Source: Candidatus Aenigmatarchaeota archaeon (GTDB lineage Archaea > Aenigmatarchaeota > Aenigmatarchaeia > CG10238-14 > WAMV01). Taken from it: 20,211 bases of DNA. The stretch covers positions 1 to 20,211 of the forward strand of contig WAMV01000011.1 in the NCBI GenBank assembly GCA_015522145.1, written 5' to 3'. This document shows, piece by piece, positions 3,258-11,249 of this stretch; the stretch's first letter is position 1; each line of letters opens with the position of its first letter. The notes under the pieces were generated by a model. It was not told the DNA's origin, searched no databases, and worked only from the letters and a program-made list of their open reading frames with translations. The translations under genes were made by a program, and so were the position numbers.

Positions 3258-3384
3258 GCCCCGGTAGCTCAACGGGTAGAGCGCCCGGCTTGTAATCTGT
3301 GATTTATGAAAGCACGACGGTCACCTGAAGTTAAGATGAAGACAAGTGACCGGGAGGTTGTGGGTTCAAATCCCACCCGGGGCT
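3258..3384 (+). tRNA. tRNA-Thr(UGU) with a 54-nt intron (3295-3348) at canonical position 37/38
   Basis: Acceptor GCCCCGG/CCGGGGC, D stem GCTC/GAGC, anticodon stem CCCGG(3284-3288)/CCGGG(3350-3354), anticodon TGT 3291-3293, T arm GTGGG-TTCAAAT-CCCAC, U73. Strict BHB: CTTG(3289-3292)/CAAG(3343-3346), bulges TAA and TGA, outer helix TCT/AGA. CCA not encoded. Confidence 0.95.
3295..3348 (+). ncRNA. Putative intron-encoded box C/D guide sRNA
   Basis: C-like ATGAAAG 3306-3312, 12-nt spacer CACGACGGTCAC, perfect D box CTGA 3325-3328, C-like ATGAAGA 3336-3342, D-like GTGA 3299-3302. The spacer is complementary to the conserved LSU rRNA sequence GACCGUCGUG. Confidence 0.7.
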
Positions 3385-3447
3385 TAAAATTTCTTTTTTA
3401 AACACATTAACCTCTATTTAAATTTTACGACGGTTGTTCAAGCTTAG

Positions 3448-3462
3448 GGAAAAGTTAATAAA
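3448..3462 (+). promoter_or_regulatory. BRE/TATA-like promoter of the 34-aa peptide gene
   Basis: GGAAAAG followed by TTAATAAA (3455-3462), ending 24 nt upstream of ATG 3486, consistent with a leaderless transcript. Confidence 0.5.
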
Positions 3463-3485
3463 CTAACAAAAATGAGTTTTTGAGT

Positions 3486-3590
3486 ATGATAGACAAAATA
3501 ACAAAAGACAAAAAAATGTTGGCAGCTGTTGCAGCAGTAGTAATTGTTGCTGTAGCAGCTGCATACTTCTTGGGCTACTTGCCTTTCTAG
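3486..3590 (+). CDS. Small single-TM membrane peptide, 34 aa (not in ORF track)
   Basis: Hand translation MIDKITKDKKMLAAVAAVVIVAVAAAYFLGYLPF*: basic N-terminus plus one hydrophobic helix, flanked by a TATA-like element and a downstream T-rich tract. Confidence 0.7.
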   Translation: MIDKITKDKKMLAAVAAVVIVAVAAAYFLGYLPF

Positions 3591-6084: not shown

Positions 6085-6196
6085 GGGGCCGTAGTCTAAC
6101 CAGGTAGGACATTCCGATGAGAACCTAAAGCCTGGCTCCAGCAAGCTGGAGCTTTGAGGAAACCAGGTGGTCGGGGTTCAAATCCCCGCGGCCCCA
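6085..6196 (+). tRNA. tRNA-Trp(CCA) with two introns: 6111-6129 (position 25/26) and 6142-6161 (position 37/38)
   Basis: Acceptor GGGGCCG/CGGCCCC, D stem GTCT/GGAC, anticodon stem CCTGG/CCAGG with spliced loop CTCCAGA, T arm CGGGG-TTCAAAT-CCCCG, A73. Intron 1 has a strict BHB (TAGG/CCTA, bulges ACA and AAG, flanking TTC/GAA and CCAGG/CCTGG). Intron 2 has a relaxed BHB. Confidence 0.92.
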
Positions 6197-6212
6197 CTAA
6201 CAATTTAAACTT

Positions 6213-7314: not shown

Positions 7315-8154
7315 ATGCAAATTCATAAAGATAAAGAGCTTGAGAAAGCTGTAGAAAAGATAAAAAGCGTTAAGGTACAGGGAGCTAAAGAAATTGCAAT
7401 CTTTGCTCTGAAATTTTTGAAGAAGTACGCTATGAAGCATGGGTTTGGCTTAAGGTTTGAAGTTGCTAGTTATGTGCTTGAACAAACAAGACCAACAGCT
7501 GTAGTTTTGCATAACTGTTTGGAAATAGTGAAAAGAGAGCAAAAAATGAGTACTTTTGATAAGTTGATTAAGCAACTTGAAACTGCAACTAAAAGACTTG
7601 CTAAAAAGGGTGCTAAGCTAATACCTGATGGCGCGACAATAATGACCCATTGTCATAGTGGAGAAGCAGTAGCAACTATTAAAGAGGCTACAAAGAAAAA
7701 AGATGTTAAAGTTATTGCCACACTAACAGAGCCATTAATGCAAGGTGTGAAAACAGCAAGAGAGTTAAAAAGAGCTGGTATAGATGTTCATTTGATTGCA
7801 GATTCTGCAACTGGATTTTTTATGAGACATGTTGATTTGGTTATGGTTGGGGCTGACGCTTTAAGAGTTAGAGAGCCAAAAGGTTTGGTGAATAAAATAG
7901 GTACTTTTAACATTGCACTAGCTGCAAATTACTACAAAAAACCTTTTTACGTTACTGCAAACAGCTTTAAAATTGATAAAAGAAAAAAAATAATTATCGA
8001 AGAAAGACCAAAGGAGGGTTTGATAAACATTAAAGGAATAAAAGCATACAATCCAGCATTCGACATAACGCCCTGGAAATTCGTAACAAAAATAATTAAT
8101 GAAAAAGAAATAATTAATCCTGAAGAATTGGTGAAAAAATATGGCAAAGATTGA
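7315..8154 (+). CDS. e2b2: Ribose-1,5-bisphosphate isomerase (eIF-2B alpha/beta/delta family)
   Basis: VQGA, TRPTAV, THCHS (catalytic Cys), VGADA (catalytic Asp), NKIGT, NPAFDITP; operonic with RuBisCO and AMP phosphorylase. Confidence 0.9.
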   Translation: MQIHKDKELEKAVEKIKSVKVQGAKEIAIFALKFLKKYAMKHGFGLRFEVASYVLEQTRPTAVVLHNCLEIVKREQKMSTFDKLIKQLETATKRLAKKGAKLIPDGATIMTHCHSGEAVATIKEATKKKDVKVIATLTEPLMQGVKTARELKRAGIDVHLIADSATGFFMRHVDLVMVGADALRVREPKGLVNKIGTFNIALAANYYKKPFYVTANSFKIDKRKKIIIEERPKEGLINIKGIKAYNPAFDITPWKFVTKIINEKEIINPEELVKKYGKD

Positions 8155-9439
8155 TTGGTATCTTGACTTTGTAGACCTTAGCTATAAGCCAAGAAAAGAT
8201 GATTTACTTGCCTTGTTCTATTTTGAGCCAGCAAAAGGAATTAGCATAAAAGAAGCTGCTGGTAGAATAGCTAGTGAGAGTTCTGTAGGTACTTGGACGA
8301 CTTTAACAACTATACCAAAAGGGTTGAAAAGGCTTATGGCTAGGGCTTATGAAATTAAAGGAAATTACTGTAAAATTGCTTATCCTTATGATCTGTGGGA
8401 AGAAGGAAGCGTGCCACAATTACTTTCTGGCATAGCAGGCAATATATTTGGTATGAAGGCTTTGAGAAACATTAGGCTTGTTGACGTTAGATTCCCAAAA
8501 AGGTATTTGCGTAGCTTTAAGGGCCCTGAGTTTAGCATAAGAGGTGTTAGGAAATTTATGAAAGTAAAGAAAAGGCCTTTAGTTGCCTGCGTACCTAAAC
8601 CAAAGCTAGGCATACCAACTAATCAATTCATAAAAATTGCTAGAGATTTCTGGCTTGGTGGGGGCGATTTGCTTAAAGATGATGAAAACCTAACTAATCA
8701 AGTTTTCAACAGATTCAAAAACAGATTTGTTAAAGCTATGAAAACAAGGGATAAAATAGAGAAAGAAACTGGAGAAAAGAAAAGTTATTTAGTTAACATA
8801 ACAGCACCAGTTAAAGAAATGGAAAAAAGATTGAAGTTAGTAGCTGATTATGGTAATGAATACGTAATGGTAGATTTTTTAACCATTGGGTTTTCAGCAT
8901 TCCAGTACGTAAGGGAACTTGCTCATGATTATAAGCTTGCTATACATGTACATAGAGCAATGCATGCAGCCATGGACAGAAATCCTAAACATGGTATGAC
9001 AATGCTATTTTTAGCTAAACTGGTCAGGCTTATCGGTGGCGACCAATTGCATATAGGTACTGTTGGGTTAGGAAAGCTCGAAGGAAAGAAGCAAGATGTT
9101 TTACTTTATCAAAAAACAATAACTAAGAAGTTTATTAGGGAAGAGTTTCCACGAACTTTGGGTCAAGATTGGGATAAAATCAAGCCTGTGTTTCCTGTGG
9201 CTAGTGGTGGTTTACATCCTGGCTTGCTCCCAAGACTTTTCTCAATAATGGGAACAGATATTGTTATTCAGGTTGGTGGCGGCATACATGGTCATCCAAA
9301 AGGAACTTATGCTGGAACAAAGGCTGTAAGGCAGGCTATAGATGCTTACTTGCAGGGAATTGACATCAGAGAATATGCCAAAAAACACAAAGAGCTAAAG
9401 CAAGCCTTAGATAAGTTCGGATTTATTAGGCCAAAATGA
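8141..9439 (+). CDS. rbcL: Form III ribulose-1,5-bisphosphate carboxylase
   Basis: ASESSVGTWT, GNIFGMK, KPKLG, KDDE carbamylation motif, HRAMHAA, HIGT-GKLEG loop 6, ASGG, GGGIHGHP. Confidence 0.97.
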   Translation: MAKIDWYLDFVDLSYKPRKDDLLALFYFEPAKGISIKEAAGRIASESSVGTWTTLTTIPKGLKRLMARAYEIKGNYCKIAYPYDLWEEGSVPQLLSGIAGNIFGMKALRNIRLVDVRFPKRYLRSFKGPEFSIRGVRKFMKVKKRPLVACVPKPKLGIPTNQFIKIARDFWLGGGDLLKDDENLTNQVFNRFKNRFVKAMKTRDKIEKETGEKKSYLVNITAPVKEMEKRLKLVADYGNEYVMVDFLTIGFSAFQYVRELAHDYKLAIHVHRAMHAAMDRNPKHGMTMLFLAKLVRLIGGDQLHIGTVGLGKLEGKKQDVLLYQKTITKKFIREEFPRTLGQDWDKIKPVFPVASGGLHPGLLPRLFSIMGTDIVIQVGGGIHGHPKGTYAGTKAVRQAIDAYLQGIDIREYAKKHKELKQALDKFGFIRPK

Positions 9440-9453
9440 TAAAATAAATTTTT

Positions 9454-9708
9454 ATGATAAGACTTGTGCTGACTTTACTAATTTTTACGTTGCTATATGT
9501 TTTTCTTTACTATTCTATGCCTCAATGCTCCTGGGTAATAACAAATTGTTGCCCAGAGCGTGCTGGAGCTAACTGGGAGTGTGTGGATTTAAGATATTAC
9601 AAGGCTCCAGATTGCCAAGAAAATCTAATACTATGTCCACAAGTATTATCACCAAAACCAGAGCAAGAATGCAAAGCTGTACCGTTTAATGGGTGTGTGG
9701 TAAGATGA
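9454..9708 (+). CDS. Small membrane-anchored or secreted eight-cysteine protein
   Basis: N-terminal hydrophobic helix then 8 Cys (including a CC pair) in about 60 aa; its TGA overlaps the next ATG. Confidence 0.75.
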   Translation: MIRLVLTLLIFTLLYVFLYYSMPQCSWVITNCCPERAGANWECVDLRYYKAPDCQENLILCPQVLSPKPEQECKAVPFNGCVVR

Positions 9709-11249
9709 AGCTAAAGGCCAGATTTTTAGATTTTGAAGCAGGTGGTAAAAAGATTATTGTATTAAATAAAGATGATGCTGAAATTTTAGGTGTGAAAAGT
9801 TTGGACAGAGTTATCATAAAAAAAGGAAACAAAAAATTAACAGCTTTAGTTGATGTATCTAAAAAGACAGTGAAGCAAGGTGAGATTTTTGTTTTTGAGG
9901 AGGTAAAGCTTGCTCTGGATTTAAAAGAAGATGATTTGGTTGAAGTTGAACCGGCAAAAATACCAAACTCTTTGGAATATATAAAACAAAGAATTAGAGG
10001 AAAAATTTTGTCGCAAAAAGAAGTTGAAGAAATTGTAAAGGATGTTGTTGAAGGAAACTTGAGTGATGTGGAGATTGCTGCTTTCATAGTTGCTTTGGAA
10101 TACATGCCTCTAAGCTTGGAAGAAGCAAAATACATGACTCTTGCAATGGTAAAAACCGGGAAAACTTTGGAGCTTAACAAAAAGCCTATACTGGATAAGC
10201 ATAGCATAGGTGGTGTGGCTGGAGACAAAACCTCTTTGCTAGTAGTACCAATAATCGCAAGCCTGGGCTACACAATCCCAAAAACAAGCTCAAGAGCAAT
10301 AACTAGTGCTAGTGGTAGCGCTGACAGAGCTGAGGCTTTAATGCCTGTCAACTTAAGTCTGGAAGAAATGAAAAGAGTTGTTGAAAAAACCAATGGTTGC
10401 ATAGTTTGGGGTGGTGCTTTAGATCTAGCTCCAGCTGATGACATCTTCATACGAATAGAAAGACCTCTTTCTATAGATCCTTTTTTGTTGCCATCTATAA
10501 TGGCTAAAAAGAAGGCTGTAAATGCAAGTCATATGGTTTTAGATATACCTACAGGCAGAGGAGCTAAGATAAAAACCATAGGCGAAGCTAAAGTATTGGG
10601 TAAAAAGTTTATTGAGTTAGCAAATATGCTTAACATAAAGCTTAAAGCTGTGATAACTCGTGGGGAAGAGCCAATAGGTCATACCATAGGACCAAATCTT
10701 GAAGCTAGAGAAGTTTTGGAAGTTTTGATGAACAGAAAGTATGTGCCTGACATGGTGGAAAAAGCATGCACCATAGCTGGAACTTTGTTAGAGTTAGTAA
10801 ACCCAAAGCTGGATGGCTATAAGGTTGCGATGCATGCAATAAAATCTGGTAAAGCAGAAGCTAAGCTAAGGCAAATAATAGCTGAGCAGGGAGGAAATGA
10901 AAAGATAAAGCCAGAAGATCTAACAACTTCAGAAATTTATGCTGATATAATTTCTAAGCAGGAAGGGCAGGTACTTTGGCTAAACAACGCTGCACTCATC
11001 CAAGCAGCTAGATATGCTGGTTCGCCTAAGTTTAAGGACTGTGGAATTTACATTTACAAAAAAGTTGGTGAGCCTGTAAAAGCTGGAGAAAAGCTTGTAA
11101 GGATTTATGCTAAGAGTGAAGCAAGGTTAGAAAAGGCTATAAGCATTATAGAGAATGAAAAAGCTATAGGCGTGGGTAAAAGATATAAAATGCTTCTTGA
11201 CAAAGTAAATGGAGATGTTATCAGAAGAACTTTTCATTTAGAGCGTTAA
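9705..11249 (+). CDS. deoA: AMP phosphorylase (thymidine/AMP phosphorylase family)
   Basis: N-terminal barrel extension typical of AMPpase, DKHSIGGVAGDK, PKTSSRAITS, LAPADD, SIMAKK; likely start ATG 9705 (ATGA overlap) rather than 9693. Confidence 0.93.
   Translation: MKLKARFLDFEAGGKKIIVLNKDDAEILGVKSLDRVIIKKGNKKLTALVDVSKKTVKQGEIFVFEEVKLALDLKEDDLVEVEPAKIPNSLEYIKQRIRGKILSQKEVEEIVKDVVEGNLSDVEIAAFIVALEYMPLSLEEAKYMTLAMVKTGKTLELNKKPILDKHSIGGVAGDKTSLLVVPIIASLGYTIPKTSSRAITSASGSADRAEALMPVNLSLEEMKRVVEKTNGCIVWGGALDLAPADDIFIRIERPLSIDPFLLPSIMAKKKAVNASHMVLDIPTGRGAKIKTIGEAKVLGKKFIELANMLNIKLKAVITRGEEPIGHTIGPNLEAREVLEVLMNRKYVPDMVEKACTIAGTLLELVNPKLDGYKVAMHAIKSGKAEAKLRQIIAEQGGNEKIKPEDLTTSEIYADIISKQEGQVLWLNNAALIQAARYAGSPKFKDCGIYIYKKVGEPVKAGEKLVRIYAKSEARLEKAISIIENEKAIGVGKRYKMLLDKVNGDVIRRTFHLER

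Follow-up and report, generated by a model that had tools for sequence, protein, structure and literature searches.

The 54-nt intron of a tRNA-Thr(UGU) gene from a hydrothermal vent archaeon is, very probably and as read from its sequence, a box C/D guide RNA that would direct 2'-O-methylation of C1920 in helix 69 of 23S rRNA. Helix 69 is the meeting place of the ribosomal subunits, not the catalytic centre that was first proposed as the site of action. The window, i.e. the whole analysed stretch of 20,211 nt, is contig C11 of genome G000 (323 kb in 19 contigs), and none of the other genomes in the order, which numbers 118, belongs to its family. The public runs holding most of the window are hydrothermal vent metagenomes from one study, one of which may be its source, and no RNA run was listed among them. 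The closest relatives of the top6A protein encoded in the window (72-81% identity) are mostly labelled Aenigmatarchaeota.

The tRNA gene and its intron

The tRNA-Thr(UGU) gene is flanked by top6A and a Na+/H+ exchanger gene. It was recognised by the Rfam tRNA model over 3258-3384 (61.7 bits), and ARAGORN, with introns allowed, placed the intron at 37/38. The features of the gene are as follows:

3258..3294, plus strand: 5' exon of tRNA-Thr(UGU), anticodon at 3291-3293
3295..3348, plus strand: 54-nt intron of the bulge-helix-bulge (BHB) type at 37/38 and predicted guide RNA of the box C/D class
3349..3384, plus strand: 3' exon of tRNA-Thr(UGU), in which C3350, at position 39 of the tRNA, is the predicted self target
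3289..3349, plus strand: BHB motif with a central helix 3289-3292:3343-3346 (4 bp)
3293-3295 and 3347-3349, plus strand: bulges of the BHB (3 nt each), with the intron helix 3296-3298:3340-3342
3299..3302, plus strand: D-like GTGA of putative function, absent from the preliminary description
3306..3312, plus strand: box C, at the same offset from the guide as in free-standing homologues
3313..3324, plus strand: 12-nt guide, whose D+5 base G3320 faces C1920 or C39
3325..3328, plus strand: box D' (CTGA)
3329..3335, plus strand: kink-loop linker of 7 nt, which lacks one base in contigs from three public DNA runs
3336..3342, plus strand: box C', its last three bases also lying in the BHB intron helix

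Every pair of the BHB is Watson-Crick, and the splicing endonuclease EndA and the ligase RtcB are encoded in the assembly; the helix, the bulges, the position at 37/38 and the two enzymes that characterise a BHB tRNA intron were thus all found for 3295-3348. Elsewhere in the window (7315-11249, plus strand), adjoining genes encode an IF-2B-family isomerase-like protein, a RuBisCO large chain and a nucleoside-phosphorylase-family protein, presumably the usual gene layout of the archaeal AMP pathway.

The boxes given in the preliminary description, C-like 3306-3312, a 12-nt spacer, CTGA, a 7-nt loop and C-like 3336-3342, are all present, so the intron has the composition of an archaeal box C/D sRNA: boxes C and D' around a guide of about 12 nt, and a D'/C' kink-loop. 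When the intron was shuffled 20,000 times with dinucleotides preserved, this C-spacer-D-loop-C pattern appeared 9 times, a figure that flatters the match since the pattern was composed after the intron had been viewed; in the 323-kb assembly it occurs at six places (two tRNA introns, one place directly 3' of a tRNA gene and three others). No C/D family of Rfam matched over 3295-3348. In the linear intron no D box stands at guide length past C'. Were the intron circular, the D-like box at 3299 would lie 10 nt past C', and an RNA with two kink-loops would exist only in that form. The intron is probably circular after splicing, by analogy with other archaeal tRNA introns, for which circularisation is described (PMC12558985). 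For the 10-nt stretch that would form a second spacer over the circle junction, no conserved match to rRNA was found. Minimum-energy folding, a model that does not include kink-loops, gave no stable structure for the intron alone (z +1.76).

Diverged contigs spanning the intron were found in the public runs (X4, 38 differences in 785 nt; X5, 16 in 407 nt), and the one-base loop deletion is the only intron change among the changes listed, 104 substitutions standing outside that list. Just past the tRNA gene, at 3385-3490 of the window, one contig of the X4 run has 1212 different letters instead, a possible insertion site.

Pairing with helix 69 and homologous guides

The G000 assembly contains neither a 23S nor a 16S gene, and the target sequence was read from relatives in other families: 61 genomes were searched for 23S, 39 had matches and 30 loci were fetched. 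Positions 3314-3323 of the intron pair 10/10 with helix 69 (1917-1926) in 28 of these 30 same-order 23S genes, the remaining two giving ten pairs with one G-U and eight pairs, respectively. The D+5 base, G3320, stands opposite C1920 in E. coli numbering, which was set by eye from the 1911-1921 fragment shown in PMC5778110. The computed duplex energy is -18.0 kcal/mol for helix 69, compared with -13.4 for the peptidyl-transferase site (mismatched at D+5), -12.3 for the intron's own splice junction and -5.7 for the spliced tRNA. As worded in the relevant part of Lui et al. (PMC6009581), a target prediction calls for at least nine contiguous Watson-Crick pairs with the N+5 base paired; the helix-69 match, in the 23S of relatives, has this length and register, whereas the self target, with seven pairs, falls short of it. 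A random 10-mer would match rRNA with a chance of 0.2-0.4%. The tRNA-Thr splice junction and helix 69 have the same six bases, so six of the ten pairs could stem from self-pairing of the intron; given these six, the chance of four further pairs is 0.4-0.8%, and the four extra pairs alone are suggestive only.

The site itself has precedent. In the section of PMC5389701 dealing with Nanoarchaeum equitans, mass spectrometry and RiboMeth-seq are reported to have confirmed 23S Cm1920, as data not shown, and sR20 is given as its guide, and helix 69 appears as a cluster of predicted archaeal 2'-O-methylations in the parts of PMC4644070 and PMC6009581 that treat it.

Two pattern searches of 371 genomes of the class gave 26 and 32 matches, G000 included, and their backwards-read controls gave 14 and 13, a considerable background, for which reason the matches were classified by visual inspection. 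Outside G000 they represent 36 distinct places, which, read in context, fall into the following groups:

Free-standing C/D sRNAs, nine: G004, G006, G008, G010, G012, G014, G038, G047, G056
Guide inside a 23S intron, five: G003, G009, G025, G031, G064
Introns of tRNA-Thr(UGU) in family f38 of another order, ten: G290, G293, G295, G296, G299, G300, G301, G324, G329, G330
Other places, five: G119, G150, G151, G335, G341 (G119 and G151 a few kb upstream of helix 69)
Chance-like places, seven

The guide core of the intron is identical at 10/10 positions to that of the free-standing sRNAs. In f38 the helix-69 guide was found in 9 of 23 parsed Thr(UGU) introns, G293 being the tenth case, and it is preceded there by a distinct guide for position 39 that has a D box to itself; self-pairing therefore cannot explain the helix-69 guide in that family. 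The intron of G324 is collinear with that of the window, box for box. Within the order of G000, none of 23 Thr(UGU) introns of at least 25 nt carries the guide, which leaves G000 alone. No tRNA called Thr(UGU) lies within 1.5 kb of the best 80 top6A loci, and these thus provided no close syntenic orthologue; a scan of metagenomes for the anticodon loop, guide and D box returned 41 stretches, none in a tRNA.

Guide and target also vary together. At guide position -10, opposite 23S 1925, the pair is C:G in seven genomes, A:U in four, G-U in one and mismatched in one (G064). The sample comprised 15 genomes with a pattern hit and helix 69, of which 13 were informative, G296 (helix interrupted) and G238 (chance-like) being set aside. 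Since the genomes are kin, the change from C:G to A:U may represent one or two compensatory events. Among the 30 relatives' 23S genes, six (L058, L059, L064, L067, L075 and L086) have short introns just past helix 69 that contain a C1920-type guide and a D-like box, followed in most by a C-like box. As far as sequence comparison goes, the homologues settle the reading of the intron as a predicted guide for helix 69.

Another C/D-like RNA adjoins the 5' end of 23S in eleven loci (L065, L066, L068, L069, L070, L071, L076, L079, L082, L084 and L085), and its guide is complementary to a segment just past the peptidyl-transferase loop.

Self-pairing, methylation proteins and alternative readings

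The seven 3' bases of the 12-nt guide, 3318-3324, form 7/7 pairs with the intron's own precursor at the unspliced 3' junction (3346-3352), with D+5 on C39, a self-pairing that the preliminary description missed. Of 31 distinct Thr(UGU) genes sampled in the order, 25 have introns, 23 of them at least 25 nt long, and 21 of these 23 can pair over at least 6 bp with the junction of their own gene and contain an NNGA box that puts D+5 on position 39. The register on position 39 was fixed by the analyst, the NNGA box serving as an independent test. The D+5 base tracks position 39 across the order (U39:A in nine, C39:G in six, G39:C in six), and in f38 the same holds for 21 of 23 introns, as to both the junction pairing of at least 6 bp and the NNGA box for position 39. 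Comparison with Thr(UGU) introns of relatives, where boxes and guide had been expected to be conserved, thus bore out the position-39 pairing and its box; the helix-69 guide, absent from the same-order introns, was matched by the ten in f38. Position-39 self-guiding is, from these pairings, the predicted ancestral job of Thr(UGU) introns.

Self-guiding appears to extend to other tRNAs of G000. Six of the 11 intron-bearing tRNA genes tested look like position-34 self guides, five of them combining a short guide with D and C boxes and having D+5 on position 34:

C3:2984-3098: tRNA-Leu(CAA)
C5:22084-22221: tRNA-Lys(UUU)
C8:5621-5737: tRNA-Arg(UCU)
C10:17769-17885: tRNA-Glu(UUC)
C19:4778-4890: tRNA-Met(CAU)
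Window 6085-6197, plus strand: sixth host, called Ser by ARAGORN

The introns of the first five form 8-12 pairs with their hosts, D+5 falling on the wobble position. The sixth gene is probably a tRNA-Trp(CCA) with two introns, wrongly called Ser; in its anticodon intron there is a guide for position 34 together with a D box but no C box, its upstream intron has a C-like box, and the two might jointly supply one kink-turn. The tRNA-Ser(UGA) intron (C7:45452-45599, plus strand) is a full C/D sRNA with two guides matching 16S rRNA. In 19 of 27 genes one of them forms 9-11 pairs with the decoding site (A1408 region); the other forms 10-11 pairs with the anti-Shine-Dalgarno tail, in 7 of the 27. 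These are the regions given for N. equitans sR13 in the corresponding entry of PMC5389701. Its first guide occurs in 60 of the 118 genomes of the order (control 1); among 30 fetched loci, 21 lie in a tRNA gene, six seem to be insertions close to the 3' end of 16S and three are chance-like. The introns of tRNA-Ser(GGA) (C7:1764-1907, minus strand) and tRNA-Gly(UCC) (C10:15514-15639, plus strand) have C/D-like boxes and guide-length spacers, for which no conserved rRNA target of at least nine pairs was found in most relatives. That of tRNA-Ile(UAU) has no C/D boxes; this gene is present in two near-identical copies at contig ends (C7:79568-79670 and C13:77-179), probably an assembly overlap or strain variants. 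Directly 3' of tRNA-Lys(UUU) stands a complete, dicistronic C-D'-C'-D sRNA (C5, about 22020-22076, minus strand) with no clear conserved target. A tRNA with Arg-like exons (C12:22454-23157, minus strand) has a 629-nt intron with an open frame of about 210 codons, whose product looks, by eye, like a LAGLIDADG-type endonuclease.

As the junction and helix 69 have six bases in common, it is slightly favoured that the guide of the Thr intron would first pair with the 3' junction of unspliced pre-tRNA-Thr and methylate C39. The chances are about even that one 12-base guide would methylate two RNAs in turn, C39 in the unspliced precursor and then C1920 as a circle. In such a scheme, L7Ae would bind the D'/C' kink-loop on the precursor and Nop5-fibrillarin would assemble there, after which the 3' end of the guide would pair with the unspliced junction and C39 would be methylated. 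Methylation and splicing would alternate, because computation puts the self-paired fold (-38.0 kcal/mol) level with the BHB fold (-37.9 kcal/mol) and box C' contributes its three final bases to the kink-loop as well as to the BHB intron helix. The endonuclease would then cut the BHB, RtcB would join the exons and close the intron into a circle, and the released RNP would pair in trans with helix 69 of pre-23S rRNA, yielding Cm1920. With respect to origin, the intron might derive either from an f38-like two-guide intron whose first guide has shrunk, or from the capture of a free-standing sRNA via the common core and boxes. Taken together with the double use, it is an evenly balanced possibility that the six common bases let a two-guide intron like those of f38 collapse, or let a helix-69 sRNA take over a self-guide.

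It is improbable that the intron is a self-guide only, producing Cm39 of its own precursor, and that the helix-69 match is a chance event or what survives, without function, of a captured sRNA. Such a limited role would agree with the junction pairing and in-register NNGA boxes of the order's and the f38 introns, the D+5 base that tracks position 39, the equal energies of the two folds and the six position-34 self guides of the same genome, but it leaves unexplained the added box C at 12 nt, the four extra pairs with their low chance expectation, the core shared in full with free-standing sRNAs and the f38 introns in which both guides stand apart.

The proteins of the predicted helix-69 guide are partly represented in G000: L7Ae is encoded in the assembly, and no gene for fibrillarin or Nop5 was found in its partial 323 kb. 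A weak fibrillarin match proved to be PCMT. Among relatives, fibrillarin was found in 59 of 60 genomes and Nop5 in five of five, adjacent to fibrillarin in those five, so that one missing contig would explain both absences. The unlikely reading that the intron acts without methylation, as a folding chaperone on helix 69 or a stable L7Ae-bound RNA with no methyl transfer, or that the methylation proteins have been lost, draws on these two absences and on the single good guide that a circle would have; against it, both large rRNAs are missing as well, the assembly, at 0.32 Mb, falls short of almost every relative (about 0.4-1.7 Mb), and the D+5 register falls on a site reported as methylated in another DPANN archaeon.

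For the 23S target, the preliminary description finds support as to the molecule but not as to the site. Positions 3313-3322 are indeed the reverse complement of the 10-mer that it placed in the peptidyl-transferase centre, and D+5 is G3320, which was to pair with the C equivalent to E. coli 2590, presumably yeast Cm2959, the target of snR73. This 10-mer is absent from all 30 same-order 23S loci on either strand and from the 27 16S genes of relatives, and in all 28 of the 30 fetched loci in which the segment was readable G3320 faces an A, so that the nucleotide due for methylation would itself be unpaired; this target is therefore rejected. A guide for 2590 is thus very unlikely, even if G000's own 23S is outside the assembly and a duplex would still form with the order's sequence, and homologous guides vary at -12, which that target needs, while following helix 69 at -10.

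Relation to known guides

The best described intron guide, the box C/D sRNA of the pre-tRNA-Trp intron in Euryarchaeota (Haloferax volcanii; sR50 of Pyrococcus), directs Cm34 and Um39 of its own tRNA and is the only intron guide given in the cited portions of PMC7994747, PMC4090602, PMC11408192 and PMC7714728. The Thr intron resembles it, as portrayed there, in having C/D boxes in a 37/38 BHB intron and a guide for host position 39, and in its proposed action in trans, of which the excised Trp intron is capable. It differs in its host, tRNA-Thr(UGU), in matching 23S rRNA over a greater length than tRNA, in seemingly using one guide for two RNAs and in its permuted box order. A position-34 guide was sought in the Thr intron, and only the 7-bp pairing with position 39 was found. 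The Thr intron would thus work like the sR50 type for position 39 but is not a member of it.

The tRNA-Met intron of N. equitans, another C/D-like RNA in a non-Trp tRNA intron of a DPANN host, is stable and is listed with 'no prediction' for its target in the relevant table entry of PMC3491384, whereas the Thr intron has a specific predicted rRNA target backed by homologues and covariation. In N. equitans the same nucleotide, C1920, is the predicted target of sR20, a dual guide for 16S Gm1530 and 23S Cm1920 according to its description in PMC5389701, which names no host intron for it; the likeness to the Thr intron is one of predicted target. Bacterial TlyA, a protein-only enzyme, methylates the same base, as the part of PMC5778110 on this enzyme states. 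As with the eukaryotic intronic box C/D snoRNAs outlined in PMC7994747, an rRNA guide would be released from the intron of an unrelated host gene, but the host is a tRNA and release would be by the BHB endonuclease and ligase rather than by the spliceosome and exonucleases; the parallel is an analogy and not a homology of arrangement. Titles and abstract openings, from a source that covers subscription papers poorly, yielded no tRNA intron described as a guide for methylation of rRNA.

A tRNA intron that guides an rRNA site would mean a further cellular role for tRNA introns and a reason for their retention. Within one class, a single guide is seen to shift between free-standing genes and the introns of 23S and tRNA genes, and, jointly with the double use, the odds are level that the tRNA and rRNA introns of Aenigmatarchaeota may be interchangeable hosts for rRNA guides. 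The predicted double use bears on the origin of new guides and on the activity of one-guide circular sRNAs. If true, this use of introns would be an archaeal counterpart of intronic snoRNAs, tying tRNA splicing to ribosome maturation.
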